A DNA stretch of 64,000 nucleotides, from positions 285,498-349,497 of the forward strand of contig CAYMOT010000001.1 of assembly GCA_964392315.1 (NCBI GenBank), given 5' to 3'. A program made the translations under genes and the position numbers. The notes under the pieces are model-generated. The model was not told the DNA's origin, made no database searches, and saw only the letters and a list, made by a program, of their open reading frames with translations. Source of the DNA: an uncultured Candidatus Saccharibacteria bacterium (lineage in GTDB: Bacteria > Patescibacteriota > 4484-211 > JAGQKX01). Position 1 is the stretch's first letter, and each line of letters begins with the position of its first letter. This document shows positions 2,249-55,351 of this stretch, in pieces.

Positions 2249-2284
2249 CGACCTTAGTTTCATTTCCAATTCCTACTTGGATTA

Positions 2285-28576: not shown

Positions 28577-29044
28577 ATGCACAAACAACTTACCGGTACA
28601 AAAAAGCACATGACCCAACTCTTTAAAGATGATGGAACAGTAGTTCCGGTAACTGTCATAAAAGTTACTGAGGCAGATGATTGGGAAGCGATAACGATAG
28701 GGTCGTCTGTGGTGGTCTCAGGAACCTCTAAGGGGAAAGGATTTGCTGGTGCGGTAAAGCGGTATAGTTTTGCAGGTGGGCCAAAGACTCATGGACAGAG
28801 TGACCGTCAGCGTGCGGTAGGGTCAATTGGTGCCGGAACAGACCCAGGAAGAGTATGGAAAGGGCAGAAAATGCCAGGGCGAATGGGAGCGAAGCGTATT
28901 ACGGTTAAAGGGTTACGTGTAGAGCAAATTGATCTAGAACACGGACTAATATATTTGAAAGGTGCGGTGCCTGGTGGACCAAAAAGTGAGCTTACGATTA
29001 CATTTGAGGCAGTCGATGACGCAAAGGAGAGCGTCAATTTATAA
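28577..29044 (+). CDS. rplC: 50S ribosomal protein L3, reduced form
   Basis: It has KKHMTQLF ... VPVTVIKV ... SGTSKGKGFAGAVKRYSF ... KMPGRMGAKRITV ... IYLKGAVPGG. It lacks about 50 aa of the central region found in E. coli L3. The track start 28571 is a TTG; ATG 28577 is preferred. Confidence 0.85.
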   Translation: MHKQLTGTKKHMTQLFKDDGTVVPVTVIKVTEADDWEAITIGSSVVVSGTSKGKGFAGAVKRYSFAGGPKTHGQSDRQRAVGSIGAGTDPGRVWKGQKMPGRMGAKRITVKGLRVEQIDLEHGLIYLKGAVPGGPKSELTITFEAVDDAKESVNL

Positions 29045-29049
29045 CACAT

Positions 29050-29679
29050 ATGGCAGATATAAAAATGCTTTCAATTGATGGAGCTGATGCGGGAACGGTT
29101 GCGGTCCCTGATGAGGTTTTTGCAGTGCCCGTTAATCATGATTTAATTGCTCAGGCAATTTATGTACGGCTACAAAATGCACGCTTAGCAACACGTAAAA
29201 CTAAAGATCGAGGAGAAGTTCGTGGTGGTGGCGCTAAGCCTTGGCGTCAAAAAGGTACTGGCCGTGCACGACATGGAAGTACGCGTTCACCTATTTGGAG
29301 AGGCGGCGGCCATGTGCATGCACTTCGCCCTGGAGTTCATAATGTTACGATTTCAAAAGCGATGCGAAGAGGAGCTTTGGTGTCTTCACTGTCAGGCAAA
29401 CATGCTCAAGGTGATGTGTTGGTTGTGCAAGGTCTGGCATATGAAAAACCACAGACAAAGACTGCCAAGAAAACGCTTGCAGCAATAACTGATAAGCAGA
29501 AAGCGCTTTTGGTTACAGCAGACAAAGATACTGCTGTTAAAAAATCTTTTCAGAATATACCCGGTACTAAGGTACGTGAGGCGCGCTTACTGCATGCATA
29601 TGAAATAGTCTGGAGTGATGTGGTCATTTTTACAAAAGAAGGGTTGGACGCTTTCTTAGGAGGAGTTGTCAAAGATTAA
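29050..29679 (+). CDS. rplD: 50S ribosomal protein L4
   Basis: It contains GGGAKPWRQKGTGRARHGSTRSPIWRGGG. Confidence 0.92.
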   Translation: MADIKMLSIDGADAGTVAVPDEVFAVPVNHDLIAQAIYVRLQNARLATRKTKDRGEVRGGGAKPWRQKGTGRARHGSTRSPIWRGGGHVHALRPGVHNVTISKAMRRGALVSSLSGKHAQGDVLVVQGLAYEKPQTKTAKKTLAAITDKQKALLVTADKDTAVKKSFQNIPGTKVREARLLHAYEIVWSDVVIFTKEGLDAFLGGVVKD

Positions 29680-29680
29680 T

Positions 29681-30013
29681 ATGGAACTTGCACAAATCTT
29701 AAAAAAACCAATAGTAACCGAAAAGTCATTGAACCGGATGAAGGACAACCATTATTCATTCGAAGTCCATTCGCAGGCGACAAAGTTTGATGTAGCACGT
29801 GCGGTAGGGTCACTCTTTAATGTTACGGTGTACAAAGTCAAAATGCTTAATCGGAAAGGGAAGCTCAAGAGGGTGTTTCGCAAACGGCAAATGACACAGA
29901 CAGCGGACAAAAAAATAGCAATTGTGACAATTGATCCGAAACAATCAATTGATATCTTTTCGGAATTTAATACAGAAGCGGTTGAGGAGAATTTATCTGA
30001 TTCAAAGAAATAG
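29681..30013 (+). CDS. rplW: 50S ribosomal protein L23
   Basis: It has ILKKPIVTEKS ... YSFEVHSQATKFDVARAV. The start was moved to ATG 29681, just after the rplD stop. Confidence 0.88.
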   Translation: MELAQILKKPIVTEKSLNRMKDNHYSFEVHSQATKFDVARAVGSLFNVTVYKVKMLNRKGKLKRVFRKRQMTQTADKKIAIVTIDPKQSIDIFSEFNTEAVEENLSDSKK

Positions 30014-30016
30014 AAT

Positions 30017-30865
30017 ATGGCACGCACAAATCTTATAAAAGTTAAGCGATATAAACCAACAAGTGCAGGAATTCGGCATCAGGTTTCTCTGGACGCGAGC
30101 GCAGTCTTGACGTCGAAACGGCCCGAAAAGTCCCTGGTCCAGCGTTTGCCCAAAAAATCTGGACGATCACGTGGTAAAATCACCGTGCGTCACCGCGGGG
30201 GAGGCCATAAGCGTCTGTATCGAGTAATAGATTTTAAGAGAGACAAATACGATGCACCTGCAGAAGTAATTGCGATCGAATATGACCCGAATCGCTCAGC
30301 GCACTTAGCACTGCTTGCGTATGAGGACGGAGAGCGTCGATATATTTTGTGGCCTGAAGGGCTTTCTGTTGGAGATACTGTTATTGCCGCAAAAAAAGTG
30401 TCAGTAAATCCTGGAAATGCGTCACCCCTTAAGTCTATTCCTTTGGGAACATTGGTTCATAATATTGAAACAGTGCCTGGCAAAGGCGGCCAACTTGTTC
30501 GGTCGGCAGGGGCAGGAGCTACACTTATGGGGCGTGACAAAGGGCTCGCACAGCTTCGAATGCCGAGTGGCGAGATACGGTTAATTCCTGAGGAGGCATG
30601 GGCTACTATTGGCACACTTGGTAATGCAGAGCATGGTCTGATCAAATTAGGTAAGGCGGGAAGACGACGCAATTTGGGTTGGCGACCTGCGGTTAGAGGA
30701 ACTGCTATGTCTGCGGGGGATCATCCGCATGGAGGAGGAGAAGGGCGGACTGGTGCAGGGCGTCCTTCAAAGACAGTATATGGTAAGCCTGCACATGGTA
30801 AGAAAACGCGCAAACCAAAGAATAAAACAAATCGACTTATTATTGCTCGTCGCAATAAAAGGTAA
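30017..30865 (+). CDS. rplB: 50S ribosomal protein L2
   Basis: It contains [13 protein letters not shown] and [14 protein letters not shown]. Confidence 0.95.
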
Positions 30866-30872
30866 GTAATTT

Positions 30873-31163
30873 ATGGCAAGAAGTACAAAAAAAGGTCCGT
30901 ACGTGGACGAAAAGCTAGTAAAAAAAATACAACAGCTTAACGAAGCGGGAATAAAAGAAGTCATAAAAACCTGGAGCAGGGAAAGTGCAATTAGTCCTGA
31001 AATGGTAAACCACACACTCGATATCCATCAAGGAATACGGTTTGTGCGCGTGTACATACAAGAAAGCATGGTTGGGCATAAGCTCGGCGAGTTTGCAAAG
31101 ACAAGAAAGTTTCTTGCACATAGTAAGAAAGGTGTACAGAAACCAACAGGTACAGGAGAATAA
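30873..31163 (+). CDS. rpsS: 30S ribosomal protein S19
   Basis: It has [15 protein letters not shown] ... [19 protein letters not shown]. Confidence 0.93.
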
Positions 31164-31169
31164 CATCAT

Positions 31170-31547
31170 ATGGCACGTCAAATTATTGCAGTTACCAAAC
31201 ATATACGACAGTCACCGCAGAAGATGCGTGTTGTGGCACGAAGAGTAGCCAAGCTTCCATTGGATAAAGCAGTTGCAGTGCTTGAGCAAACTCCCAAGAG
31301 AGCAGCGGAGCCAATATTAAAGACTTTGGCGTCAGCTAAGGCGAATGCAATACATAACTTTGATATACCAAAAGAAAAGCTATTTATTAAAGAAATTCAG
31401 GTGGGAAGAGGTATGATACGGCGTTCTCCAGAATTTCGCGCACGAGGGCGATTGAATTGGCGCCGGAGTGCTAGTTCTAATGTACGGGTAGTATTAGAGG
31501 AAACTGAAAATATAGATCAATCACCAAAGAAAGAAACACCCAAATAA
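31170..31547 (+). CDS. rplV: 50S ribosomal protein L22
   Basis: The position in the operon and the sequence (VAVLEQTPKRAAEPILKTLASAKANA) support the call. Confidence 0.88.
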   Translation: MARQIIAVTKHIRQSPQKMRVVARRVAKLPLDKAVAVLEQTPKRAAEPILKTLASAKANAIHNFDIPKEKLFIKEIQVGRGMIRRSPEFRARGRLNWRRSASSNVRVVLEETENIDQSPKKETPK

Positions 31548-31587
31548 ATAGATGTTTCTGTAATTATTTTTTGGTAATTAGTTGCGT

Positions 31588-32214
31588 ATGGGACAAAGTA
31601 TTAATCCGGTAGGTTACCGGCTTTCTAAAAACAAAAACTGGAATTCTGTTTGGCATAATGACCAGAACTATGTGGATTTACTTCACGAGGACTTGGCAAT
31701 TAGAAACTATTTGAATACAGAATTATCGCTTGCAGGGCTTGACCGGGTTGTCATAAAGAGAAGTATCAATCAGGTTGATATTGATGTCTATGTCGCAAAA
31801 CCGGGTATGGTTATAGGACGTGGAGGTACACGCGTAGAAGAGATAAAGAAAGGATTAAATGTATTAGCAACGGGAAAGATGAATCTCAATGTGTTCGAAG
31901 TTGCTCATCCGGATTTATCAGCGAGGGCGGTTGCAGACGATATTGCATATAAGATTGAGCGAAGAATGAGCTATAAGCGTGTAGTTGCTAAATCAATGCA
32001 AAAGACAATGGATGCGGGGGCTCAAGGTATTAAGGTATATGTGAGTGGCCGAGTTGGGGGAACTGCCATTGCTCGCACTGAGAAAAAGGTATTGGGTTCA
32101 GTGCCCACGTCTACCATGGATGCCGATATAAGCTATTCTCAAGCGACAGCAAAGACTAAATTCGGAACGATTGGTATAAAAGTATGGATTGCACGAAACA
32201 GTAAAAACGAGTAA
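31588..32214 (+). CDS. rpsC: 30S ribosomal protein S3
   Basis: It begins MGQSINPVGYRLSKNKNWNSVWH and has a KH domain. The start is the ATG at 31588; the track start is a TTG at 31582. Confidence 0.93.
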   Translation: MGQSINPVGYRLSKNKNWNSVWHNDQNYVDLLHEDLAIRNYLNTELSLAGLDRVVIKRSINQVDIDVYVAKPGMVIGRGGTRVEEIKKGLNVLATGKMNLNVFEVAHPDLSARAVADDIAYKIERRMSYKRVVAKSMQKTMDAGAQGIKVYVSGRVGGTAIARTEKKVLGSVPTSTMDADISYSQATAKTKFGTIGIKVWIARNSKNE

Positions 32215-32231
32215 TAGAAAGGTAAAAACGT

Positions 32232-32651
32232 ATGCTAGAACCAAAGAAACTTAAATATCGACGAATTTTTAGAGGAAAGAATAAGGGAAAAAGTACCAGG
32301 GGAAGTGAAGTGTCCTTTGGCGAATTTGGTTTGCAGTCTAAGACACGAGGATTTATTTCAAGCCGCGAAATAGAGGCTGCACGACGGGCAATAAGGAACC
32401 ACGCAAGTCGCGGTGGTAAGTTGTGGATTCGAGTATTTCCCCACAAGCCAATAACAAGCAAAGGTGGCGAGGGGAGAATGGGTGGAGGAAAAGGTCCGTT
32501 GGATCATTATGCGGTAGTTGTCAAGCCTGGTAGAATGCTGTTTGAATTGTCAGGATTGCCAGAAGAGGTTGCGCGAGAAGCATTCCGATTAGCAGGACAT
32601 AAGTTATCAGTGGGAACCGCATTTGTCAAAAAAGGGGAATACTATGAGTAA
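32232..32651 (+). CDS. rplP: 50S ribosomal protein L16
   Basis: It has MLEPKKLKYRRIFRGK ... IRVFPHKPITSKGGEGRMGGGKG. Confidence 0.93.
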   Translation: MLEPKKLKYRRIFRGKNKGKSTRGSEVSFGEFGLQSKTRGFISSREIEAARRAIRNHASRGGKLWIRVFPHKPITSKGGEGRMGGGKGPLDHYAVVVKPGRMLFELSGLPEEVAREAFRLAGHKLSVGTAFVKKGEYYE

Positions 32652-32868
32652 ACAATCAACGTTAATGTCTGAATTACGTACAAAAACAAAAGGGGAATTA
32701 CAAGCAATGTTGCAAGATGAGCGTGACGCACTTGCGCAGCTTCGTATGAATGTTGCGGTAGGGAAAGAATCAGAAACGCATAAATTGCGCAAAGCACGTG
32801 TAGCTATCGCCCGCATTCAAACTGTATTACGCACGTTGTCGTCTCAGGACACAACTGCGCAGAGTTAA
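32644..32868 (+). CDS. rpmC: 50S ribosomal protein L29
   Basis: It has [27 protein letters not shown]. The start is at ATG 32644, overlapping the rplP stop. Confidence 0.85.
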
Positions 32869-32869
32869 T

Positions 32870-33121
32870 ATGTCAAAAAAACAGCTTATAGGTACAGTGG
32901 TATCAACACATATGCATAATACCGTGGTCGTGAAAGTAGACCAGGTGGTAAAGCATGCACTCTACGAAAAAAGGTTTGTGCGTAGCAAAAAATATTATGC
33001 ACACACGGAACAAGACGAAATAAACGTTGGTGATACTGTGCGAATTGAAGAAACCCGTCCGCTATCAAAACAGAAACGTTGGCATGTAGTAGAACGTATC
33101 ACGAAGAATGATAACGTTTAG
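32870..33121 (+). CDS. rpsQ: 30S ribosomal protein S17
   Basis: It has [17 protein letters not shown] ... [29 protein letters not shown]. Confidence 0.92.
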
Positions 33122-33127
33122 GCATCT

Positions 33128-33496
33128 ATGATTCAAATTGGTACACAATTACAAGTAGCTGATAATTCGGGGGCAAAAAGAGTGCAATGTTTATCGATCC
33201 CTGGAGCGTCCAAAAAGAAATATGCATATCTTGGTGACACCATATCAGTCGTGGTGAAAGGAGCGATTCCTCATGGTGCAGTAAAAGATCATGAGATTGC
33301 TCGTGCACTTGTCGTCAGGACAAAAAAGGAAAGACGAAGGAATGATGGAACATACATAAGATTTGATGATAATGCAGCTGTACTTATCGACAAAAATGGT
33401 GTGCCATTGGGAACACGAGTTTTTGGCCCAATTGCCAAAGAAGTAAAAGACCGCGGGTTTTCTAAGATAGCATCACTCGCGAAAGAGGTTTTATGA
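33128..33496 (+). CDS. rplN: 50S ribosomal protein L14
   Basis: It begins [24 protein letters not shown]. Confidence 0.95.
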
Positions 33497-33804
33497 AAAT
33501 CAAAGCAGGAGATACTGTACAAATCATTGCTGGTAAGGATAAAGGAAAGAGCGGAAAAGTTCTGAAGTCATTTCCTAAGGAGGAACGCGTATTAGTCGAA
33601 GGGGCCAATATAGTAAAGCGGCATAAACGCGCACGGCAACGAGGACAAGAACATGGCATTTTGCAAAAGCCTGCACCGCTTCATGTGAGCAATGTCATGA
33701 TTGTTGACCCGGCATCTAAGGTGCGAACTCGAGTGGCCAATGATGCAACGACCGAGAAGAAGAAACGTGTTTCAAAGAAGACTCGAAAATCAGTAGATAA
33801 ATAA
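33493..33804 (+). CDS. rplX: 50S ribosomal protein L24
   Basis: It begins [24 protein letters not shown], a KOW motif. Confidence 0.92.
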
Positions 33805-33806
33805 AT

Positions 33807-34361
33807 ATGACTCGCTTAAAAGAAAAATATACAAAGGAAATAGTTCCGCAATTAATGAAAGATCTAGGGTATAATAACCCGCACGCGGTGCCACGACTGA
33901 TGAAGATCGTGCTTAATATGGGGGTGGGACGTGCAATAAAAGACAAGAAAGAGATCGAAAAATCTCAGGAGGATTTAACAAACATTGCCGGCCAAAAGGC
34001 TATCATTACAAAAGCACGTAAGTCAATTGCAGGATTTGGAGTGGGGAAAGGCAATGCGATTGGTGTAAAGGCAACGCTCAGAGGCGATCGAATGTATGAG
34101 TTCCTCGATAAATTAATTGCGATAATATTTCCGAGGACTCGTGATTTCAAAGGGGTACCGGTACGGGCGTTTGATGGACAGGGCAATTATACATTAGGGA
34201 TTAATGAACAAGTTGTATTTCCGGAGATTGATCCCAATACATTAGATCGCAGAAGGAGTTTGCAGGTGATTATTGTAACATCTGCTCAAAATACCAGTGA
34301 AGGTGAAGCGCTTTTGAGGGCATTTGGGATGCCTTTCGAAAAAGAGGCTTCACAGAAATAA
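33807..34361 (+). CDS. rplE: 50S ribosomal protein L5
   Basis: It has IVLNMGVG ... RGDRMYEFLDKLI ... DGQGNYTLGINEQVVFPEID. Confidence 0.93.
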   Translation: MTRLKEKYTKEIVPQLMKDLGYNNPHAVPRLMKIVLNMGVGRAIKDKKEIEKSQEDLTNIAGQKAIITKARKSIAGFGVGKGNAIGVKATLRGDRMYEFLDKLIAIIFPRTRDFKGVPVRAFDGQGNYTLGINEQVVFPEIDPNTLDRRRSLQVIIVTSAQNTSEGEALLRAFGMPFEKEASQK

Positions 34362-34364
34362 CAT

Positions 34365-34547
34365 ATGCCACAAAAGTCATGGATATTACGAAATGAAAAG
34401 AAAAAGCGTCCGGTAAGTAAACGTAATCGTTGCAGAGTGTGTGGGAATCCACGTGGCTTCATGGGTAAATTCGGAATGTGTCGAAAATGCTTTCGCGAGC
34501 ATGCCCTCAGGGGTAATCTTCCGGGAGTAATAAAAGCATCATGGTAA
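34365..34547 (+). CDS. rpsZ: 30S ribosomal protein S14, type Z (zinc-binding short form)
   Basis: A 60-aa protein containing [23 protein letters not shown]. Confidence 0.92.
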
Positions 34548-34942
34548 TGATAACTGATCCCGTAGCGGATCTTCTTATACGAATTAAAAATGGTTATATG
34601 GCAAGTAAGATTGAAGTAACGATGCCATACACTCGGTTGAAGGAAACAATAGCTCGTGTATTGTATGAACATGAGTTTGTAGATGATGTAACGGTGAATG
34701 AGCAAGAGAATAGAAAATGGCTGACGGTATATCTAAAGTATGATGATAAGAAACAGCCTGCGCTCATAGATATCAAGCAAGTATCTACTCCAGGACGAAG
34801 AGTGTACAAGCCGTATGCAAAGCTTCGGTCCATCCGTGGAGGGTTTGGCATAACAGTTGTTAGTACGTCAAAAGGGGTTATGTCTTCGGAGAAAGCGAGA
34901 AAACAAAAGCTTGGCGGTGAGGTACTCGCAGAGGTTTGGTAG
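34541..34942 (+). CDS. rpsH: 30S ribosomal protein S8
   Basis: It has [17 protein letters not shown] ... GRRVYKP ... [15 protein letters not shown]. Confidence 0.93.
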
Positions 34943-34969
34943 AGTGTGTCGATCTACCTAATAAAACAT

Positions 34970-35509
34970 ATGTCTAAAATAGGAAAACAACCAATACAAA
35001 TACCACCAGCAGTCGAGGTTACTATAGAGGGGAGAGATGTCAATATTTCAGGACCCAAGACGGTAGTCACGCATACTCTCCCGCGAGAGTTAAAGTTGCA
35101 GCGTGAAAACGATACGTTGCTTGTTCTAAAAGATTCGCCTGCTCGATATGTCCAAGCGTTGTGGGGATTATGGCGTGCGCTATTAGCAAATGATATAGAA
35201 GGGGCACACGTTGGTTTTGAAAAAAAGTTAGAGCTTACCGGTGTTGGATACCGGGTAAACATGAAAGGAAAAGACTTAGAGCTTATGCTTGGATTTTCGC
35301 ACCCGATCCTTTTTAAAGCTCCTGAAGATATAACGCTTAGTATTGATGATAAATATATTGTGGTGTCAGGGCCAAGCAAGCAACGTGTAGGTCAAATTGC
35401 CGCAGAAATTCGAAAGCTTCGGGCTCCTGAACCCTACAAAGGCAAAGGGATTAAATATGTGGGTGAAATAATTCGCAGAAAAGCTGGTAAGGCAGCTAAA
35501 GCCGGCTAG
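34970..35509 (+). CDS. rplF: 50S ribosomal protein L6
   Basis: It has MSKIGKQPIQIP ... the two-domain L6 pattern ... KGKGIKYVGE. The track start 34946 is probably a 5' extension. Confidence 0.9.
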   Translation: MSKIGKQPIQIPPAVEVTIEGRDVNISGPKTVVTHTLPRELKLQRENDTLLVLKDSPARYVQALWGLWRALLANDIEGAHVGFEKKLELTGVGYRVNMKGKDLELMLGFSHPILFKAPEDITLSIDDKYIVVSGPSKQRVGQIAAEIRKLRAPEPYKGKGIKYVGEIIRRKAGKAAKAG

Positions 35510-35519
35510 CTATACGAAT

Positions 35520-35879
35520 ATGTTACAAAAATACACTGGATCTTACAAAGAAAAGCAAAGACAAAGACGCCATCAGCGTGTACGTGCTAAGATTAGCGGT
35601 ACTGCTGATCGACCTCGTGTAGCTGTTTTCCGCTCGAGTGAACGATTGTATGTTCAGGCTATTGATGACACTGCGCGCAGTACCCTTATTGGCATGAGCG
35701 ATAACGCTATTAAGTTATCGCCGAAGACTGCAAAAGCACATCGGCTCGGAAATGAATTTGGGAAGCGTTTGCAGGAAAAACAGATTACGCGTATAGTATT
35801 TGACCGCGGAGGATATGCGTACCATGGTAGGGTAAAAGCTTTGGCAGATGGGATGAGAGAGGCAGGATTACAATTCTAA
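35520..35879 (+). CDS. rplR: 50S ribosomal protein L18
   Basis: It has [26 protein letters not shown] ... [24 protein letters not shown]. Confidence 0.92.
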
Positions 35880-35881
35880 GT

Positions 35882-36409
35882 ATGATAGATACAAAGAAAC
35901 CAAAAACACAAACTATGGAACAAGAACATAAAGATACTGAATATCTTGAACAACTCGTTGAGCTTAAACGTACATCCAAAAAAACCAAGGGGGGTAACAG
36001 GTTTCGTTTTGCAGCATTAGTAGTAGTAGGTGATCGAAATGGTATGGTGGGAGTTGGGGTAGGCAAAGCAAAAGATGTAAGTGCTGCGGTAAAAAAAGGT
36101 GGACGCCAAGCAAAAAAGGCCATGTTTCCCATTCAACTCGTTGGAGAAGCACGAACGATTGCACATGATGTCCGTAAAAAGTATAAATCAGCTCAAATAC
36201 TTCTCAAGCCTGCGCCGCTTGGTACGGGTATTATTGCGGGTGGAGCGATTCGTACCATTGCAGAAGCAGCAGGCATTCGGAATGTCGTGGGTAAAATTAT
36301 TGGCAGCAAAAACAAAAAAAGTAATGTAAAAGCAACGATTATGGCACTAAGAAGCATTAAACCAACATCAGCTCGCAAAATTACTCGTAAGGTATCGAAG
36401 ACTAAATAA
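35882..36409 (+). CDS. rpsE: 30S ribosomal protein S5
   Basis: It has [38 protein letters not shown]. Confidence 0.93.
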
Positions 36410-36410
36410 T

Positions 36411-36842
36411 ATGCAACTACATTCATTACCAAAATTAAAAGGGGTTCAAAAACGTGGAAGGCGTCTTGGTAGAGGACTGGGAAGTTCTAAAGGAAAAACA
36501 TCAGGACACGGAATTAAGGGGCAAAGTGTACGCAATCGGTTAAAGTTGAGACGTTTACAAATATTTAAGCAATTCCCGTTTTTAAAAGGAAAATCCGGCC
36601 GGCGGGTACAGTGGTCTATGCGACCGTACACCGTTACGTTGAATCAATGTAACACGCTGGATACGGAAAAACTCACACCTCAAGTATTGTTGGATGCTGG
36701 AGTAGTAAAGGATACAAATATGCCCATAAAAATCCTCGCTAATGGCACATTGACGCATGCACGTACATTCTCGTCTGAGTTTACATTTTCGAAAAATGCA
36801 CGAAAAAAGATAGAAGAGGCTGGTGGTACAATACAAAAGTAA
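36411..36842 (+). CDS. rplO: 50S ribosomal protein L15. It follows rpsE directly, with no L30 gene in between.
   Basis: It has KGVQKRGRRLGRGLGSSKGKTSGHGIKGQ. A 1-nt gap after rpsE leaves no room for rpmD. Confidence 0.9.
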   Translation: MQLHSLPKLKGVQKRGRRLGRGLGSSKGKTSGHGIKGQSVRNRLKLRRLQIFKQFPFLKGKSGRRVQWSMRPYTVTLNQCNTLDTEKLTPQVLLDAGVVKDTNMPIKILANGTLTHARTFSSEFTFSKNARKKIEEAGGTIQK

Positions 36843-36843
36843 G

Positions 36844-38133
36844 ATGAAATTCCTTTCCCTCCTTCGTCAAGTATGGTCGACGCCTGACGTGCGACGCAAA
36901 GTCATAGTTACCCTTGGAATACTAACCATATTTCGTATTCTTGCACATATCCCGTTACCGGGTGTTGATCTTGCATCGTTACGCAATCTGTTTGCGAGCA
37001 GCCAGTTTTTGGGACTCTTAAACCTTTTTTCTGGTGGTGCGTTATCGAACTTTTCAATAATTGCACTAGGGCTTAACCCGTATATCAACGCCTCTATCAT
37101 TTTGAATTTGATGACTATGGTGATTCCATCTCTAAAAGAGCTTTCACAGGAAGGTGCGCAAGGCAGACGAAAAATAAACCAATACACCAGGCTACTCACG
37201 CTACCACTATCGGTAATACAGTCGATGAGTATTTATTTTTTGCTCAAGAGTCAAGGAGTCATATCGTTTTTGCCACCTACGACCATCGCCCTTATGGTAC
37301 TTACACTTACAGCCGGTGCGTTACTCCTTGTTTGGCTTGGCGAACTAATTGAAAATTATGGCGTTGGTAATGGAATCTCAATTCTTATCTTTGCAGGTAT
37401 TTTAAGCGGACTTCCCGTATCATTGTCTCAGCTCAGTGCAGTCAATGTAGAACAAGGAGATTTTTTGAGTATCCTCCTTTTCCTCCTTGTTAGTGTGGTT
37501 ATCATATGGGGTATTGTTGTAGTAAATGAGGCACAACGGGAAATTCCGATTCAATATGCTCGTAGAGGTGGTGGTCGACAAGCTGCCATGGGTCAGTCGA
37601 CACATTTGCCTCTTAGATTGAATAGTGCGGGTGTTATACCAATTATCTTCGCAATTTCCCTTATTTCATTGCCTGGTTTGGCAGGTAACTTTTTAGTTAA
37701 CCTGAGTAACCAACAACTCGTGCAGCTTGTGCGGCAATTCTTAGAATACTATAACAACCCTGTCATATATGCCTTGCTGTATTTTGTGCTTGTAATTGGA
37801 TTTACCTATATTTATACGGCAGTTCAATTTAATCCTGATGATGTAGCGGATAATCTTCAGAAACAAGCTGCTTTCATACCTGGCATACGTCCAGGTGCAC
37901 ATACAGCGGAATATCTAAACCAAATACTTACGCGAATTACGTTGGTGGGAGCTATCTTTCTTGGCCTCATTGCGGTATTACCTATCGGTATGCAAGTACT
38001 ATTCCCAACACTCAGTGGTGCGGTAACACTCGGCGGGACAAGCCTCCTTATTGTGGTCTCAGTTGTACTCGATGTGCTCAAACGATTGGAGGCTATGCTT
38101 GCAACCAGAGGATATGAACAATTTCTACAGTAA
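36844..38133 (+). CDS. secY: Preprotein translocase subunit SecY
   Basis: A 10-TM protein with GILTIFRILAHIPLPGVD ... GNGISILIFAGIL ... PIIFA. The start was moved to ATG 36844, just after the rplO stop. Confidence 0.93.
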   Translation: MKFLSLLRQVWSTPDVRRKVIVTLGILTIFRILAHIPLPGVDLASLRNLFASSQFLGLLNLFSGGALSNFSIIALGLNPYINASIILNLMTMVIPSLKELSQEGAQGRRKINQYTRLLTLPLSVIQSMSIYFLLKSQGVISFLPPTTIALMVLTLTAGALLLVWLGELIENYGVGNGISILIFAGILSGLPVSLSQLSAVNVEQGDFLSILLFLLVSVVIIWGIVVVNEAQREIPIQYARRGGGRQAAMGQSTHLPLRLNSAGVIPIIFAISLISLPGLAGNFLVNLSNQQLVQLVRQFLEYYNNPVIYALLYFVLVIGFTYIYTAVQFNPDDVADNLQKQAAFIPGIRPGAHTAEYLNQILTRITLVGAIFLGLIAVLPIGMQVLFPTLSGAVTLGGTSLLIVVSVVLDVLKRLEAMLATRGYEQFLQ

Positions 38134-40901: not shown

Positions 40902-41831
40902 ATGCCACTCTTAGATACTGTTGTAACAATAGACGATAATGATTCAAAACATGCACGATTTGTTGTAGAACCCCTTGATAAGGGATATGGTCATACACTG
41001 GGAAATGCGCTCCGTCGTGTGCTGCTGTCTTCTCTAAACGGTTCGGCGATAAAACAAATAAAGTTTGATGGTGCAACGCATGAATTCACGGTAATTCCAG
41101 GAATAAAGGAGGATGTTGTTGAGCTTATCCTAAATTTAAAAAACATAATATTCAAAATGGAGAAGAAGCAGGCAACGCTGGTGACCATTGATATAAAAGG
41201 ACCTGGCGTCGTGCGTGCTGGTGATTTTCATTGCCCAGCCGGTATCGAAATTGTCAATCCGGATTTGGAAATAGCAAATCTTGCAGATAAAAATGCTCAT
41301 TTAAAAGCAGAATTATTGGTTGACTATGGCAAAGGCTACCATTTAGTTGAAGAGAAAAATAACGAAGTTGGTGTTATCCATTTGGATACGAACTTCAGTC
41401 CAATAGAGCGGGTAAACTATACGGTCGAAGCGACACGTGTCGGTAAATTAACTGACCTCGATAAGCTCGTTATCGATATTTTCACTGATGGGTCAATGGA
41501 TCCAGAGGAGGCGCTACGCCAAGCAGGGGCAATCCTCGTAGAGCAATTTCAGTTAGTCTCGGGGGGTGTCGCGGTAGAGCGCTTGGTAAATGAAGAGAAG
41601 GTAGAGAAGAAGGAAGCGCCGAAGCAGGAAAAAGTGGTGTATTTGGAGGAGCTCGATTTGCCTACTCGAGTGTTAAATACACTCCGTCGTGCGGGAATGG
41701 AAAATGCAGAAGACGTCATCAGAAAGGGTGAAGAAGGACTCCTTGAGATCAAAAATGTTGGCCCCAAAATAGCCATCTCAGTCCTCGAAAAAGCACAGAA
41801 GGCAGTTGCCGAAAAAGAGCAATCTGAATAA
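40902..41831 (+). CDS. rpoA: DNA-directed RNA polymerase alpha subunit
   Basis: A 309-aa protein with an N-terminal assembly domain (GYGHTLGNALRRVLLSS) and a C-terminal alpha-CTD (LEELDLPTRVLNTLRRAGMENAEDV). Confidence 0.93.
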   Translation: MPLLDTVVTIDDNDSKHARFVVEPLDKGYGHTLGNALRRVLLSSLNGSAIKQIKFDGATHEFTVIPGIKEDVVELILNLKNIIFKMEKKQATLVTIDIKGPGVVRAGDFHCPAGIEIVNPDLEIANLADKNAHLKAELLVDYGKGYHLVEEKNNEVGVIHLDTNFSPIERVNYTVEATRVGKLTDLDKLVIDIFTDGSMDPEEALRQAGAILVEQFQLVSGGVAVERLVNEEKVEKKEAPKQEKVVYLEELDLPTRVLNTLRRAGMENAEDVIRKGEEGLLEIKNVGPKIAISVLEKAQKAVAEKEQSE

Positions 41832-44143: not shown

Positions 44144-44906
44144 CCCCCGTTATAAGCCGAGTGGCGTTCAAAATACAGAGATTCTGAATGAGGTACGTAA
44201 ACAGTTTCCAGATACTGCTGTAATGCACGCAGGTGCATTGGATCCTCTCGCGGAAGGATTACTTTTAGTTGTCGTCGGGACAGAAAAACATACGGATATA
44301 CTACCTCTGATTGCTACAAAAAAGACCTATGAGTTTGAGATACTTTTGGGTTTTCGGACTGATACGTGGGATATCCTGGGTATTCCCATTAGCATTGCGC
44401 TGCCAGGCGTAGTGGATGTCTGCAGCAAGATAAACATGCAAGAACTACTATCTTCATATAAAGGGGAGATTATTCAGAAGGTGCCGCACTTTTCTAACAT
44501 GCGGTATCGTGGCAAACGCATGTATGAATGGGCACGTGAAGGAAGGGTGCATGAAGTACCATCTGTTTTTAGAAAGCGTATCGTGCATGATATTAGCTTC
44601 TGTGGTATCCGGAAAATACCGGCAACCTTATTATTCAAGGAAATATGTGAGAAATTAGTAAAAGTGCAGGGAGACTATCGTCAGGAAGAGATCCTTGGTA
44701 GTTGGCAGGACCTGTTTAATGCTCTTGATAGGGATGAACAATATGCTATCGTGTCAGGCAGAATGGTCTGTGATAGTGGTACATATGTCCGAAGTTTGGC
44801 ATATGACTTAGGGGAGCAGTTAGGTGTTGGTGCTACAGTTTGGCGCATTTGTAGAACACATATAGGAACGTATACCCTTGATGATGTCGAAAAGATGCTA
44901 GAATAA
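44133..44906 (+). CDS. truB: tRNA pseudouridine(55) synthase TruB, short form without an obvious PUA domain
   Basis: The catalytic region reads HAGALDPLAEGLLLVVVG ... KTYEFEILLGFRTDTWDILG. Confidence 0.8.
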   Translation: MRIIPRYKPSGVQNTEILNEVRKQFPDTAVMHAGALDPLAEGLLLVVVGTEKHTDILPLIATKKTYEFEILLGFRTDTWDILGIPISIALPGVVDVCSKINMQELLSSYKGEIIQKVPHFSNMRYRGKRMYEWAREGRVHEVPSVFRKRIVHDISFCGIRKIPATLLFKEICEKLVKVQGDYRQEEILGSWQDLFNALDRDEQYAIVSGRMVCDSGTYVRSLAYDLGEQLGVGATVWRICRTHIGTYTLDDVEKMLE

Positions 44907-46574
44907 GCGCTTTTGTACAGGACGCAGCTTAGGTTTGATCGGTTTAGTGCAATCGTGAACGGTGATTCCTTTAAGATCTCTTGTAAATCTTGAAGCCTCC
45001 ATCACTCTACGAGTGCCGTAAATAGTTCGGTTAGCTGCACAAGAGAGATATAAATGGTCTTTTGCCCGAGTCATTGCAACATATGCGAGTCGTCTTTCTT
45101 CATCAAAGTCCGTTGCTTCTCCTTCTCTCATATGCGGCAAGACTCGTTCTTCTAAGCCTGGTAAAAATACCACTGGCCATTCCAAACCTTTACTTGCATG
45201 TATTGTCATAACGCAAATTTTCTCTGTTTTATAGGTGGTGTCTGGATCGCGGAGTATGAGCTTACTGAGTTCCAAAAAAAATGGCAGGTCTTTTTGAATG
45301 TCTCCAGTTTCGAGGATGCGGGCCTCTCGGGCAAAAAGGGTCGTTGTAGCAGGATCTACACTCGCTGCATCAAATGATTTTCTTACGAGATCAACAAGCG
45401 ATGTGTTAAACACAAGCGTAGAGGGTTGTAAGCCATTCAAACTATTCAGTGCGGAAAGGGTTTGTTCATTCGAATTCATGGTGATAGGAGAAACAGTAAC
45501 GGGTAACCCGCGGTGTACAAGTGCCTTTTTAATCACATCCATCTGGGAGCGACTTCGTACAAGAATTGCGATGTCACCGAATGTGAAAGCCCCTTCCGTA
45601 TTGCTTTCGACCGCTCCGGTGTCATAATCTTGTCGACGTATACCACCAATGAGACGATGTATCGTATCGGTAATAAACTGGGCTTCGGCTTTGTCGGATG
45701 GGGTGGTGTATAGACCAATATGACCGACGGATTGCCTTGTGGCCAATTGTGATGAGGAATTTGGAAATAATTGCTGAGATATAGTTAGTATTTCTTTGCA
45801 CGAGCGGTAATTGTTAGCAAGTGTATACCTATGAGCGTTAGGACATCCGGTTCGGAGCTCTTCGAACCCGTGGGTATTTGCACCACGAAAGCCATATATA
45901 GTCTGTAAAGGGTCACCTATCACAAATAGCGTTGACCCCTCAGAAAGCAGTAAGATAAGTGCCTGTTGTGCTTTGTTTAAATCTTGATACTCATCAACTA
46001 ATACATGTGAAAATTGATTTTGGTACTTCTGCAGTATCGCCGGATCATTCTGGAATAAACGTATTGTGTGCAAGATCAAATCATCGAAATCAATCCAGTT
46101 GTTTTCATGCAGACGAGCAGTATACGCATCTATGATGGGGCGTATAGCGGTAGGTAGTTGTGAAGAAGGTGTTGGAGAAGCTTTGTAAAGACTCAGCTGT
46201 CTTATGGTATCTTGCACCTTTGCGATACCTTGGTGTTTACAAATGTCGGATATGATTTCTGCTTGGGTGTGTTCATCAATGAGCAGGGGAAGCGTACCGG
46301 TTTCAATGTGCAGTATATTGAAGCACCATGCGTGTAGGGTTTGTATTATTGGCGGTTTGGGTGTGCGTAGCATATTGCCTACTCTTTCAGTTATTTCCGT
46401 GGCCGCTTTATGCGTGAACGTAACAGCAAGGATTTGTGAAGGATGGACACCTTGTTGAATGATGTGTGCTATGCGCATAACCAGGGTGTGTGTCTTTCCG
46501 CTTCCAGGTCCCGCAATAACCAGTATCGTTGAAGCATTACTTTGTACTGCGTTGTGTTGTGCACGATCGAGCAT
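44898..46574 (-). CDS. UvrD/PcrA/Rep-family SF1 DNA helicase, compact
   Basis: It has motif I VIAGPGSGKTH, Ia TFTHKAATE, II VLVDEYQDLN, III VIGDPLQTIYGFRGA and VI VMTIHASKGLEWPVVFL ... VAMTRAKDHL. The track start 46676 overlaps the upstream gene, so the start was moved to ATG 46572-46574, 7 nt after the EndoQ-like stop. Confidence 0.8.
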   Translation of the reverse strand: MLDRAQHNAVQSNASTILVIAGPGSGKTHTLVMRIAHIIQQGVHPSQILAVTFTHKAATEITERVGNMLRTPKPPIIQTLHAWCFNILHIETGTLPLLIDEHTQAEIISDICKHQGIAKVQDTIRQLSLYKASPTPSSQLPTAIRPIIDAYTARLHENNWIDFDDLILHTIRLFQNDPAILQKYQNQFSHVLVDEYQDLNKAQQALILLLSEGSTLFVIGDPLQTIYGFRGANTHGFEELRTGCPNAHRYTLANNYRSCKEILTISQQLFPNSSSQLATRQSVGHIGLYTTPSDKAEAQFITDTIHRLIGGIRRQDYDTGAVESNTEGAFTFGDIAILVRSRSQMDVIKKALVHRGLPVTVSPITMNSNEQTLSALNSLNGLQPSTLVFNTSLVDLVRKSFDAASVDPATTTLFAREARILETGDIQKDLPFFLELSKLILRDPDTTYKTEKICVMTIHASKGLEWPVVFLPGLEERVLPHMREGEATDFDEERRLAYVAMTRAKDHLYLSCAANRTIYGTRRVMEASRFTRDLKGITVHDCTKPIKPKLRPVQKRLF

Positions 46575-46581
46575 AGGTGCC

Positions 46582-47874
46582 TTAGATAAGCGATAATTGA
46601 TTGTCTGGGTCTTTGGTATCAATCCCGGTTCGTTCCTCTTTCGAAAAGACGTGTACCTCCCCGTATAGTCCATCATAGCCTGGGGTTATCGTAATGTCTC
46701 CTGTGCGCGTTTTCTCTATTGCAGTCGCGAGTAGCGGGGAGCTGGCTTCGGCAATGTCTTGTATTGAAAGATCCATCAGAATACGGAGCTCTGGACCAAG
46801 TTTGTGTAGCAAGTCCATATACGCGCTATTGACCGTCTTAGACTGTATGCCTTTCTGTTCAACCTCGGCAATGATTTCGTTTAAAGGAATAAGGTGCATG
46901 CACCGTTCAGGGTCTTTTGCCTCTACACGGTCGGAAAGTGCCATTACCCGATTGAGTACCCCAAGCGTCAACTTTTTGTGGCAACGAGGGCATATATTAC
47001 CTAATGTTTTGCTTTCTGAGGGATGAAGTAGTACCTCACAATTGCGATGGCCGTCATAATGGTATCGTCCTTCGTGCGGATAAAACTCTGTTGTGCCAAT
47101 AAACTGAGCCCTATCTTTTGTTTTGACTGCATCCCATATCCCGTTGTATGAGATTTCTGTGTCGAATATGCAGGTTTCCCTTCCAATGCGGGGTGCAGAG
47201 TGACTATCGGATCCAGACATGAGCGCTACAGAATCAAGTGCAGACCATAAACGGTTCATCGCCGGATCGGATGACAGTCCTGTTTCAATAGCAAATATAT
47301 GGCTCGTGAGATCTCCATAACATGCTTCGAGAGAATCAAATCCCGAATTGGATCCGAATACTGCAAAGTGTGGTGTCCATGCATGGGCGGGTACCAGGTA
47401 CGCATATGGGGTAGTCTTCGTCACCATTCGTAAAAGATCCTGGCTATCAACCCCGAGTATTGGTCTACCGTCAGAGGAAAGATTACCAATCGCTCCAAGC
47501 TGCTCATTAATCGCTTCTACTATCTCAAAACTTGGTGCGTACAAAAGGTGGTGGACTTTGCGTACTTTCTCGTCTTTCGAATAAATAGTACTCACTTCAC
47601 TTTCAAGCATAAAGAACACCTCTCTATAGCACGAAGAGGGAACTTCGCTTTTTGCTGCGCGGGTTATCTCATCGGTTGGTTTGAACAAGCCATTGTTCAT
47701 AGGGATGAGATCTTTTTGCAATTCTTGCAACCAAAGAGGGTGTGTAAAATCTCCGGTTGCCATGACGGTGATTCCTTTGAGCATCGCCCATTTAGTCAAC
47801 TCTTTTATAGATAATGATTTGCTGCAAGCGTAGGCGTAGCGAGAGTGTAAATGAAGGTCGGCAGTAAAGCGCAT
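46582..47874 (-). CDS. PHP-domain nuclease, endonuclease Q-like (TIGR00375-type)
   Basis: It has the PHP metal motifs ADLHLHSRYAY and ATGDFTHPLW, plus VHHLL, SDGRP, VPAHAWTP and SGSDSHS. A central Cys cluster (HRNCEV ... ICPRCH) looks like a zinc finger, and the C-terminus reads GYDGLYGEV. The architecture matches archaeal/Bacillus EndoQ. The start is at ATG 47872-47874 (MRFTADLHLHS). Confidence 0.6.
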   Translation of the reverse strand: MRFTADLHLHSRYAYACSKSLSIKELTKWAMLKGITVMATGDFTHPLWLQELQKDLIPMNNGLFKPTDEITRAAKSEVPSSCYREVFFMLESEVSTIYSKDEKVRKVHHLLYAPSFEIVEAINEQLGAIGNLSSDGRPILGVDSQDLLRMVTKTTPYAYLVPAHAWTPHFAVFGSNSGFDSLEACYGDLTSHIFAIETGLSSDPAMNRLWSALDSVALMSGSDSHSAPRIGRETCIFDTEISYNGIWDAVKTKDRAQFIGTTEFYPHEGRYHYDGHRNCEVLLHPSESKTLGNICPRCHKKLTLGVLNRVMALSDRVEAKDPERCMHLIPLNEIIAEVEQKGIQSKTVNSAYMDLLHKLGPELRILMDLSIQDIAEASSPLLATAIEKTRTGDITITPGYDGLYGEVHVFSKEERTGIDTKDPDNQLSLI

Positions 47875-47896: not shown

Positions 47897-48646
47897 ATGC
47901 AAATCAACGAATTTGCCTACCTGCGCAGGCAGGCAAATAATGACCGGTGGCAACACTCGTATCTCAACCTCAAACATCGGCGGATGCTCTTTCCTGATAA
48001 GCCGAGTGGTGCAGGAAGGCAGTTGTTAGAATTTTTAGATTCGCAGTCTGAATTTGATAAGTCTATGGCAGCGGTACTTGATATTGGGTGCGGAAATGGA
48101 AGGAATGCATTTGCTCTCGCACTGGATGGGTTTGGGCAAGTAATAGGATTTGATATCATTCCCCAAGCTATACAAGATGCAACTCAACACGCTGAAGACT
48201 CCGGTTTACAGAACGTAATGTTCACCATACACAATGTTGAAAATCCATGGCCGTTTGACAATGCAACATTTAATGTCGCCATTGACGTAAATACTTTTTC
48301 ATCTCTGTTGTCTGATGTGCGGACAATATATATTAATGAGCTTGTTCGGGTACTTGATGTGGGTGGTTACTTTTTTTTAACAACATACACCCTGCAGGAC
48401 GGCTATTACAATTCTTTCGTTGCGCATGATTCGGAGAGGCTATATCCAGGTATTGGGATAGTCTGTCCAGATGACAATATCGCACGTGTTTTGTACACAC
48501 CTGAGGAACTTAAAGAAATATTCGCTACGGTTTCAGATGGGCAATTGTCTGTTATGGGCACAAACGTTCACACGTGGTACGGCAAAATGTTTGATCGCTA
48601 TTATAAGCGAGAATTTTGTTCATTTGTTTTTAAAAAACATGAGTAA
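47897..48646 (+). CDS. Class I SAM-dependent methyltransferase
   Basis: Motif I reads VLDIGCGNGRNAFALALDGF ... VIGFDI. Confidence 0.7.
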   Translation: MQINEFAYLRRQANNDRWQHSYLNLKHRRMLFPDKPSGAGRQLLEFLDSQSEFDKSMAAVLDIGCGNGRNAFALALDGFGQVIGFDIIPQAIQDATQHAEDSGLQNVMFTIHNVENPWPFDNATFNVAIDVNTFSSLLSDVRTIYINELVRVLDVGGYFFLTTYTLQDGYYNSFVAHDSERLYPGIGIVCPDDNIARVLYTPEELKEIFATVSDGQLSVMGTNVHTWYGKMFDRYYKREFCSFVFKKHE

Positions 48647-53468: not shown

Positions 53469-53628
53469 GATAGTAATAGTCAAATAGTACTAATAAACAA
53501 ATAATCAAATCTACAAATCAATGTTTTGATAGAGATTATAGCAATTATTCTTGGTAGAAACCAAAATGCCCCGGGGTAGACATATGTCAGTATATATATC
53601 CCCTTGTAATGTATGCTACAATCGCTAC

Positions 53629-54705
53629 ATGCCGAAAGAGACTTCTGCGACCAATGGCAAGAGCGAAGCGGTAAAACTCGCGATTGATCAAATAGAAAAA
53701 CAGTTTGGCAAAGGTGCAATTATGCGGCTTGGTGAGGAAGGCAAGCGGGAGCAGATAGAAGCGATTCCCACGGGATCCATAGCGTTAGACTTGGCGCTTG
53801 GTGTGGGTGGTGTACCACGGGGACGTATTATCGAAATCTTTGGTCCCGAAAGTAGCGGAAAAACTACTTTGGCACTTCACGTTGTTGCAGAAGCTCAGCG
53901 AATGGGGGGAATTGCAGCATTTATTGACGCTGAACATGCACTCGATCCGGTGTATGCGGGAAAGATTGGGGTCAATGTTGATGAGCTCCTTCTCTCGCAA
54001 CCTGATACTGGAGAACAGGCTTTGGAAATTGCTGAGACCCTGGTTCGTTCGGGTGCTGTTGATATCATTATTGTTGATTCGGTTGCTGCGCTTGTGCCAC
54101 GTGCAGAGATTGAAGGTGAAATGGGTGATAGTCATGTAGGTCTGCAGGCTCGTCTTATGAGCCAGGCACTGCGTAAGCTCACCGGAGTAATAAATCGCTC
54201 GCATACAACCGTCATTTTCATTAACCAATTGCGCTTAAAAATCGGGGTTATGTTTGGCAATCCAGAAACAACACCTGGAGGATTAGCGCTTAAATTTTAT
54301 GCCTCTGTTCGCATGGATATCCGTCGCAAGGCTGCGCTCAAAGACGGAGAAGAGACTGTGGGTAATAGGCATGTCGTAAAAGTAGTGAAAAATAAGGTTG
54401 CACCGCCATTTCGCCAGGCGGAATTTGATATTATGTATGGTGAGGGCATTTCAGGAGAGGGAAGTCTTATTGATGTGGGTGTTGAGCTTGGGGTGGTTGA
54501 TAAATCAGGTAGTTGGTACGCGTATAAAAACGAAAAGATTGGACAGGGGCGTCTTGGTGCACTGGAGTTTCTCAAAGAAAATAAAAAAGTAGCCAATAGT
54601 ATACAACAGGACATCATGAAGAAAATGAAGGAAGGTAATACACCGCTAGAACTTGGAGAGACAAAAGAAGCAAATAATGTAGAAATGGCTATAGAAGAAC
54701 AGTGA
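53629..54705 (+). CDS. recA: Recombinase RecA
   Basis: It has Walker [10 protein letters not shown], plus ALDPVYA and VIFINQLR, and the N-terminus reads [20 protein letters not shown]. The track start 53551 adds 26 non-RecA residues; ATG 53629 is preferred. A TGcTACAAT -10 ends 6 nt upstream of it. Confidence 0.93.
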
Positions 54706-54712: not shown

Positions 54713-55351
54713 GTGCCCGTTGTTACCAATATCCTTCCACAAAAAAAGGACCCTTCCCGTTTTAATGTGTATATAGATGATGAATTTGCGTTTGGCCTTT
54801 CTCAAATTTCACTGGCCAACCTAGGTCTAGCAATAGGAAAACAACTTACCCCAACGGAACTCGAACAGGTAAGAAGTGAAAAGGAGTTTGATATGCTTTT
54901 GCAAAAAGCAATAACCTATCTCTCATATAGGCCACGTTCGACACGAGAGCTCATAACACGCTTGTCTCAAAAAATACCTACAGCACAAAAAGAAAAAATA
55001 CAAAGCGTCGCTGATTACTTATTGGAAAAGCACTATCTTGATGACAAAGCATTTGCTGAGTGGTGGGTAAGACAACGAAGAGAATTAGGTAAACGCTTTG
55101 GCAAGCATCGGATACGTCAAGAACTGAGAGCAAAGGGTATTTCCGAGGAGTATATAGAGACTGCGTTGCAAAATTCGGAAGAGGATAATGATGAAAGCGA
55201 AATCGCCTATGAAGAAGCATTGAAGATCTGTAAACGAGTGAAAGAAAAAGATACGCAAATTGTGAGAAATAAGTGCATACAAACACTGGTCCGGCGAGGG
55301 TTTAGCTGGGATATAGCGCGCACCGCGGCCACAAGGGTCTTGAGTGAGTAG
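54713..55351 (+). CDS. recX: RecA regulator RecX
   Basis: A three-repeat helical protein (FNVYIDDEFAFGL ... AITYLSYRPRSTRELITRL ... AEWWVRQRR) located directly downstream of recA. Confidence 0.8.
   Translation: MPVVTNILPQKKDPSRFNVYIDDEFAFGLSQISLANLGLAIGKQLTPTELEQVRSEKEFDMLLQKAITYLSYRPRSTRELITRLSQKIPTAQKEKIQSVADYLLEKHYLDDKAFAEWWVRQRRELGKRFGKHRIRQELRAKGISEEYIETALQNSEEDNDESEIAYEEALKICKRVKEKDTQIVRNKCIQTLVRRGFSWDIARTAATRVLSE

Follow-up and report, generated by a model that had tools for sequence, protein, structure and literature searches.

The nuclease gene and its partner

The DNA analysed here is a 64,000-nucleotide (nt) stretch, hereafter the window, of contig CAYMOT010000001.1 (positions 285,498 to 349,497) from an uncultured Candidatus Saccharibacteria bacterium. 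Its minus strand carries a gene for a 430-amino-acid (aa) protein of the endonuclease Q (EndoQ) family, followed directly by a gene for a UvrD-like helicase of 558 aa. The original prediction, made from the sequence of this stretch, was that the two form an operon and a two-gene module for the processing of DNA lesions. The features of the locus are as follows.

46582 to 47874, minus strand: EndoQ family gene, 430 aa, with PHP, zinc-binding and C-terminal helical domains (matches to Pyrococcus furiosus EndoQ (PfuEndoQ), to TIGR00375 and of the AlphaFold (AF2) model)
47110 to 47874, minus strand: PHP domain, residues ~1–255, with metal ligands and lesion-pocket residues (residue map to PfuEndoQ)
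46981 to 47049, minus strand: zinc-binding knuckle H276-x2-C279...C295-x2-C298 (alignment to PfuEndoQ C249, C252, C268 and C271)
46585 to 46599, minus strand: C-terminal pentapeptide QLSLI of EndoQ, predicted to be of the beta-clamp-binding type (motif comparison with relatives)
46575 to 46581, minus strand: intergenic spacer GGCACCT, 7 nt, from the EndoQ stop to the helicase ATG (read from the sequence)
44898 to 46574, minus strand: EndoQ-associated helicase of superfamily 1A (SF1A), UvrD/PcrA/Rep-like, 558 aa (Pfam, PcrA 1pjr and AF2 matches)
44901 to 44915, minus strand: C-terminal pentapeptide QKRLF of the helicase, predicted to be of the beta-clamp-binding type (motif comparison with relatives)

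As had been described, the 558-aa helicase frame, with motifs I to VI, opens 7 nt after the EndoQ stop on the same strand. The junction reads ...CTTATC TAA GGCACCT ATG, with an AAGG that overlaps the EndoQ stop codon, and no terminator-like site was found there. The open frame of EndoQ reaches a TTG at 47907, but this start was ruled out and the ATG was assigned because the N-termini of the homologues read M-R/P-F-I-A-D-L-H. A 592-aa form of the helicase, beginning at an ATG at 46676 and overlapping EndoQ by 95 nt, was likewise ruled out, as the homologue alignments start at residue 2 of the 558-aa form. A database protein 97% identical to the window helicase is also 558 aa long, in agreement with the shorter start.

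The identity of the PHP protein was examined by sequence and by predicted structure. In a phmmer search, it matched PfuEndoQ (5zb8) along its full length (E-value 4.2e-49, query residues 4–410 against chain residues 4–383), and the only solved structures found by sequence were those of P. furiosus EndoQ. The NCBIfam hidden Markov model TIGR00375 was matched from end to end (E-value 1e-44, model positions 2–374 of 374), yet the score of 153.4 bits lay under the curated cut-off of 326.6. An AF2 model based on 49 homologues had a mean predicted local distance difference test score (pLDDT) of 90.5 and a predicted template modeling (TM) score of 0.90, and its best Foldseek matches were again EndoQ structures, 5zb8 and 7k30 (E-value 1.7e-35, TM scores of 0.82 and 0.88), while other PHP enzymes reached TM scores of only ~0.3. 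By both routes, therefore, the top homology was to EndoQ and neither to histidinol phosphatase nor to PolX. The family is labelled TIGR00375, COG1379 or PF27218 (MJ0043_C). Close relatives of the window protein carry PF27218 and the NCBI name "endonuclease Q family protein"; as annotation pipelines name them in this way, the family membership itself is already known. No family was matched in a local Pfam-A scan of the PHP protein, and PF27218 was found only in precomputed database tables. Close EndoQ relatives, with 66–74% identity, belong to candidate division WWE3.

EndoQ cleaves DNA immediately 5' of deoxyuridine (dU), deoxyinosine (dI), deoxyxanthosine (dX) or apurinic/apyrimidinic (AP) sites, and the ends that result are a 3'-OH and a 5'-phosphate. 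The residues on which this activity depends are retained in the window protein. All six zinc ligands described for PfuEndoQ (PMC5961232), namely H8, H10, E76, H84, H139 and D193, correspond to identical residues of the window protein (H8, H10, E93, H108, H164 and D223), and PfuEndoQ H195 and R114 are conserved as H225 and R137. The pocket residues H139, G169 and S171, which in PfuEndoQ exclude thymine and adenine (PMC8307549), are conserved as H164, G199 and S201. The metal-ligand and pocket positions were invariant in the alignment of the 49 homologues (A2). Most of the motifs listed in the original prediction could be located as written (DLHLHS, SDGRP, PAHAWTP, SGSDSHS and the C-terminal GYDGLYGE); the exception was GTGD..HP.W, which reads ATGDFTHPLW in this protein, GTGD being the family consensus. 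These data demonstrate that the window PHP protein is a homologue of EndoQ and that both its active site and its lesion pocket are intact. Chance similarity is excluded by the E-values, both for the nuclease (4e-49, PfuEndoQ) and for the helicase (7.5e-62, PcrA).

The window protein shares with the EndoQ of P. furiosus and Thermococcus kodakarensis (5zb8, 7k30) and of Bacillus pumilus the same three-domain architecture, and is ~31% identical to 5zb8 in a structure-based alignment, but it differs from the archaeal enzymes in three respects. First, the predicted central Cys cluster does exist, but consists of one His and three Cys: the three Cys are conserved and His276 takes the first position, giving H-C-C-C in place of the archaeal C4. 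All 49 bacterial homologues have H276, and the position becomes variable only once PfuEndoQ, with its Cys, joins the alignment; the H-C-C-C site probably still binds zinc. Second, Trp144 of PfuEndoQ, the proposed base-stacking wedge, is replaced by His169, with a Trp three residues earlier at 166. Third, an insertion of 24 residues lies between PHP strands at query residues ~66–100.

A divergent helicase linked to EndoQ

By sequence and fold, the partner belongs to the SF1A helicases, and its ATPase and helicase motifs are intact. It matched the Pfam domains PF00580 (UvrD-helicase, E-value 3.9e-62) and PF13361 (UvrD_C); among known structures, PcrA (1pjr) was matched with an E-value of 7.5e-62, and UvrD and Rep were also matched by sequence. 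Motifs I, Ia, II, III, IV, V and VI were all present (AGPGSGKT, TFTHKAA, DEYQD, GDPLQTIYGFRGA, NYRS, HASKGLEWPVVF and VAMTRAK, respectively), and the motif columns were invariant across a 42-sequence alignment (A3). The AF2 model (pLDDT of 88) had TM scores of 0.70–0.80 to the PcrA, UvrD and Rep structures 1pjr, 4c30, 2is1 and 1uaa, and a fold of four subdomains, 1A, 1B, 2A and 2B, was predicted.

In other respects, the helicase departs from these enzymes. It is 558 aa long, compared with ~720 aa for PcrA, UvrD and Rep. The 2B region spans ~85 residues (~362–445) as against ~165 in PcrA, and the alignment with PcrA stops at residue 644 of 724 of the latter, with ~20 residues of the query remaining. 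The ~80-residue Tudor-like tail at the C-terminus of PcrA, which binds RNA polymerase, is thus missing, and a basic linker followed by QKRLF is found instead. The NCBIfam equivalog models scored the window helicase far under their cut-offs (328 against 911 bits for PcrA, 277 against 951 for Rep, and 259 against 1144 for UvrD). EndoQ-linked helicases in general scored 304–398 bits on the PcrA model, whereas the four listed relatives without the terminal motif scored 768–837 bits. One of the latter is a WWE3 gene situated away from the EndoQ locus, near rRNA-methylase and EndoIII-like genes (647 aa, 783 bits, no QxxLF tail; GCA_014729135.1, contig WJKK01000001.1, locus L087). WWE3 lineages thus possess a PcrA-like helicase apart from the EndoQ-linked one, which is an additional, specialised paralogue. 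No second UvrD-like gene was found in the 64-kb window. Taken together, the sequence comparisons suggest strongly that the window helicase is no orthologue of PcrA, UvrD or Rep, and that EndoQ-linked helicases make up a divergent, EndoQ-specific clade distinct from all three.

The linkage of the two genes was surveyed by scanning one genome per species; the 80 best EndoQ loci were taken, of which 73 were informative, and they are the best-scoring loci rather than a random sample. EndoQ and the helicase were encoded in one uninterrupted open reading frame (ORF) of 1040–1190 aa at 13–15 of the 73 loci, including those of KSB1, Latescibacterota, Gemmatimonadetes, Caldilineae and Desulfobacterota. 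At 14 more, the helicase gene lay directly downstream of EndoQ on the same strand with gaps of 1–934 nt (WWE3, Nitrospirota, Peregrinibacteria/Peribacteria, Omnitrophota, Elusimicrobia, Planctomycetales and Desulfobacterales among them), and at two it lay 4–5 kb downstream. Wherever the genes were linked, the order was EndoQ then helicase on the same strand, without exception. No helicase was found within ~6 kb of EndoQ at 42 of the 73 informative loci.

A search from the side of the helicase gave a similar picture. Among its nearest 120 relatives in 5.8 billion proteins, 43 were fusions of ~730–975 aa (most ~960) carrying PF27218, and all six stand-alone relatives that were checked had EndoQ upstream, one of them behind three small genes and one with EndoQ frameshifted. 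The fusion proteins (~950–1200 aa), annotated only as "UvrD-helicase domain-containing protein", hold the same modules in the same order, and their helicases belong to the same clade, with 32–36% identity to the window helicase. In a HMMER search of 1.84 billion cluster representatives (50% identity), 3503 EndoQ-like clusters were found, 921 of them at an E-value of 1e-30 or lower, and a helicase domain beginning near residue 478 was present in 141 of the 150 best EndoQ representatives, part of this excess arising because the fast-evolving helicase divides fusions into many 50% clusters. Even with this bias, the result shows that the fusion is common and diverse. Pairwise identities of EndoQ and of the helicase co-vary (Mantel r of 0.91, 0 of 5000 permutations), which fits inheritance of the two as a unit; on the 9421-nt contig of one relative, EndoQ and the helicase were 73% and 43% identical, respectively, to the window proteins.

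These data bear on the possibility that the two genes are accidental neighbours, or part of a loose clustering of repair genes, with a general PcrA/UvrD helicase that acts independently of EndoQ. The complete set of UvrD/PcrA motifs, the PcrA- and UvrD-like fold, and the 42 loci with no helicase nearby are what such a reading would lead one to expect. It does not account for single-ORF fusions in many phyla, nor for the finding that the nearest relatives of the helicase are nearly all fused or adjacent to EndoQ. A general helicase would, moreover, be expected to score like the true PcrA-like relatives (~800 bits, including the separate WWE3 gene) rather than at 328 bits, and neither the shortened 2B region nor the missing Tudor tail suits it. 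We regard this reading as very improbable; accidental adjacency is in effect excluded by the fusions together with the specificity of the clade. The two-gene module put forward in the original prediction is supported by fusions and same-strand adjacency in many phyla and by an EndoQ-specific helicase clade, more strongly than the window alone could have shown, and the coupling has become the part of that prediction with the best support.

Several linked loci showed irregularities. In an Anaerolineae metagenome-assembled genome (L091, positions 2132–3383), the EndoQ upstream of the helicase is frameshifted, appearing as two overlapping tblastn segments with ORFs of 249 and 76 aa; the split may mark a pseudogene or stem from an error in the assembly. 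At L089 (the P0164 locus) and on a JGI contig (P0150), one to three small genes lie between EndoQ and the helicase, among them a DUF4019 protein, a TfoX_N protein and unannotated ORFs. Two unrelated loci, L086 and L089, have Band_7 (SPFH) genes after the helicase gene. Stand-alone EndoQ proteins of ~423 aa (P0006, P0023, P0036, P0070 and P0098) go under the name "DNA helicase UvrD" in NCBI and UniRef, which is probably a systematic mis-annotation carried over from the EndoQ-helicase fusions; the fusions would in this way explain hundreds of stand-alone EndoQs so mis-named.

Clamp-binding-type C-termini and a proposed repair route

The last five residues of the window proteins are QLSLI in EndoQ and QKRLF in the helicase. 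The motif QL[SD]LF is the canonical beta-clamp motif, and endings of this type recur among the relatives of both proteins. Qxx[LM]F was the ending of 72 of 120 EndoQ relatives (88 of 120 in a looser form) and, in exact form, of 97 of 120 helicase relatives, about a dozen further helicases having one or two residues beyond the motif. Q554 and F558 of the helicase were invariant in the 42-sequence alignment, and among the 62 long ORFs of the window the helicase alone has such an ending. The fusions end in ...EQLSLF, a QLSLF-type motif at the extreme C-terminus of the helicase part, and their internal junction is without such a motif; the fusion is thus one polypeptide with one terminal motif, whereas in the window the module is split and each of the two proteins has its own motif. 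Both tails were predicted to be disordered or of low confidence (EndoQ residues 422–430, pLDDT < 50).

A beta-clamp motif in bacterial EndoQ homologues was noted earlier by Shiraishi et al. 2016 (PMC4858679), and its presence on EndoQ itself is not new. The archaeal counterpart is a tested one, as the C-terminal PCNA-interacting protein (PIP) box of archaeal EndoQ binds PCNA with a dissociation constant (KD) of 55 nM and stimulates cleavage (PMC4858679); for the bacterial QxxLF-type ending, binding is predicted. What is new, on the evidence of these predicted motifs, is that the partner helicase carries the same type of ending and that, upon fusion, the motif sits at the helicase end. The original prediction did not include the fusions, the separate clade of the helicase, or the C-termini of clamp-binding type that both proteins carry. 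In the literature searched, which left many subscription-journal papers outside, no description of the EndoQ-helicase linkage, the fusion or the shared clamp motif was found, and no function has been published there for the fused or the split form.

We propose that the two genes form one operon for a glycosylase-independent, "nick-and-unwind" repair module, a reading that we consider somewhat better than even. At a deaminated base (dU, dI or dX) or at an AP site, where the base is missing, EndoQ would flip out the lesion and cut the phosphodiester bond 5' of the lesion, leaving a 3'-OH and a lesion-bearing 5'-phosphate. The dedicated SF1A helicase would then load at the EndoQ nick and strip the lesion-bearing strand off the template, probably along with EndoQ itself, after which a 5' nuclease, a polymerase and a ligase would replace the patch. 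The beta sliding clamp may hold both proteins through their C-terminal QxxL[F/I] tails; the clamp dimer would offer two pockets, one each for EndoQ and the helicase, and in fused forms a single tail at the helicase end would suffice. For this module, we infer the substrate range, the clamp binding, the helicase polarity, the displaced strand and the downstream enzymes. A precedent for the helicase step is provided by UvrD, which in nucleotide excision repair and mismatch repair unwinds from a nick (after incision by UvrABC or MutH) and so frees the incised strand; this is the role proposed here for the window helicase. Published EndoQ models call for an unnamed helicase (PMC4357722, PMC8438529), with the steps after the nick only sketched (PMC4357722), and the window helicase is probably this long-postulated partner that finishes the repair started by EndoQ.

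The same tails would also suit a role at the replication fork, where a clamp-riding EndoQ would cut at dU, dI or misincorporated nucleotides in template or nascent strands, the task of the helicase being to remodel the stalled fork. Clamp-binding-type termini on both proteins agree with such a role, as does the behaviour of archaeal EndoQ, which binds PCNA, cuts both single- and double-stranded DNA and, as has been suggested, may belong to the replication complex (PMC8307549, PMC4858679). The sequence data, however, do not separate a fork role from clamp-assisted patch repair, and a cut in the template at a fork would produce a double-strand end, which is hazardous for a module that holds no recombination partner. 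We consider the fork role unlikely.

Several observations weigh against the nick-and-unwind module. The TIGR00375 score of the window EndoQ is less than half of the curated cut-off, and its QLSLI tail ends in Ile rather than Phe, a weaker match to the clamp motif. The species survey rests on best-scoring loci, and more than half of the informative ones had no helicase near EndoQ; since many EndoQ loci, as well as the characterised Bacillus type, are without the helicase, it is not obligatory for EndoQ function. The helicase also evolves faster than EndoQ, with a mean pairwise identity of 38% against 56%. Core repair enzymes do not usually behave in this way, and a role driven by conflict would fit the difference as well. 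Finally, the literature searched contained no biochemistry on any member of the helicase-linked EndoQ clade.

The linkage names a concrete candidate for the missing helicase step in EndoQ repair, and it suggests a "toolbelt" arrangement on the beta clamp, parallel to the archaeal interaction with PCNA. Bacterial EndoQ is very widespread, with most of its sequence diversity physically joined to one divergent clade of UvrD-like helicases. The window enzyme has a dedicated helicase coupled to it, and its homologues elsewhere are fused to one, unlike the characterised archaeal and Bacillus enzymes, which are without one. A broader statement would be that bacterial EndoQ is mostly one half of a clamp-tethered nuclease-helicase machine that carries out a complete, glycosylase-independent excision of deaminated bases, its helicase being the activity postulated since 2015, and that this machine is widespread in uncultivated bacteria, including the candidate phyla radiation (CPR), and no archaeal curiosity; we would give this statement an even chance. 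For biochemists, the system would be a simple one to reconstitute, from two proteins or from a single fused protein, and for CPR bacteria it may point to a compact way in which very small genomes could repair deaminated cytosine and adenine.

Distribution and genomic setting

At least 583 species-representative genomes contain an EndoQ homologue, and CPR lineages (WWE3, Saccharibacteria, Peregrinibacteria, Nealsonbacteria and others) accounted for 11 of the 80 best loci. EndoQ has been described as archaeal and as occurring in "a few bacteria" (PMC8438529). The WWE3 genome with the separate PcrA-like helicase has an EndoIII-like HhH-GPD gene two genes downstream of it, and base-excision repair is therefore not wholly lacking in this small-genome lineage. 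Small genomes with EndoQ are not unusual, and the suggestion in the original prediction that its occurrence in a reduced genome would be notable found little support.

The mobile fraction was searched as well. No match to EndoQ was found in 50,697 phage records or in 2.9 million IMG/VR viral contigs. Among 72,556 plasmids there was one match, on a megaplasmid with chromosome-like housekeeping genes, where the locus is of the Bacillus type, nudF-endoQ-spoIIM, without the helicase. A mobile-element or viral origin of EndoQ was rejected on the basis of these searches. The genes flanking the pair in the window are core genes, and the synteny is kept in relatives, in which the conserved order is rpoA, L17, L13, S9, a PrsW-like protease, TruB, helicase, EndoQ and methyltransferase. 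By these comparisons, the window most likely derives from a CPR bacterium of the WWE3-like kind.

The distribution and the neighbourhood bear on a further reading, in which the pair is a nuclease-helicase system for defence against phages, by analogy with Gabija. Uracil or another non-canonical base in the invading DNA would be the target at which EndoQ cuts, with the helicase aiding degradation. A nuclease with a UvrD-like helicase follows the same two-gene logic as Gabija (the OLD-family nuclease GajA with the UvrD-like helicase GajB) and the Lhr-MPE cassettes, in which a nuclease is paired with an SF1 or SF2 helicase. The window helicase, which evolves fast relative to EndoQ, also matched the PADLOC models of GajB (E-value 1.6e-85), but these models are generic to the UvrD family. 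The window nuclease, furthermore, is a lesion-specific PHP enzyme in a housekeeping context and not of the OLD/TOPRIM or MPE type. The core, syntenic neighbourhood, the absence of EndoQ from phages, viral contigs and mobile plasmids, and EndoQ and helicase distances that co-vary as for vertically inherited genes all speak against defence. Tails that bind the clamp are a typical feature of factors in replication and repair, and the tails of both proteins fit such factors; we know of no counterpart of these tails in Gabija or the Lhr-MPE cassettes. The anti-phage reading is, in our judgement, improbable. An identification of the pair as Gabija itself was rejected, given the generic GajB matches, the PHP partner without a PADLOC match, and no OLD-like (GajA-type) ORF nearby.

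The pair is closely packed against its neighbours. The truB gene on the plus strand and the helicase gene on the minus strand converge, with their 3' ends overlapping by 9 nt at 44898–44906; a convergent TruB neighbour is also found in two relatives, with a 9-nt overlap in one (L001) and 3 nt beyond the helicase gene in the other (L085). On the opposite side, between the EndoQ start (47874) and the start (47897) of a divergent S-adenosylmethionine (SAM)-methyltransferase gene there are only 22 nt, so the promoters of both genes must fall within coding sequence. A hairpin with a 12-bp stem lies at 47911–47938, just within the 5' end of the methyltransferase gene.

The whole window, 1–64000, is a core-genome block in which the cumulative GC skew climbs throughout. 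The core genes listed for it are the following.

13183 to 20200: rpoB and rpoC
28577 to 38133: ribosomal protein operon
40902 to 41831: rpoA
53566 to 54705: RecA
54893 to 55351: RecX

The EndoQ-helicase operon is among the few minus-strand units in the window.

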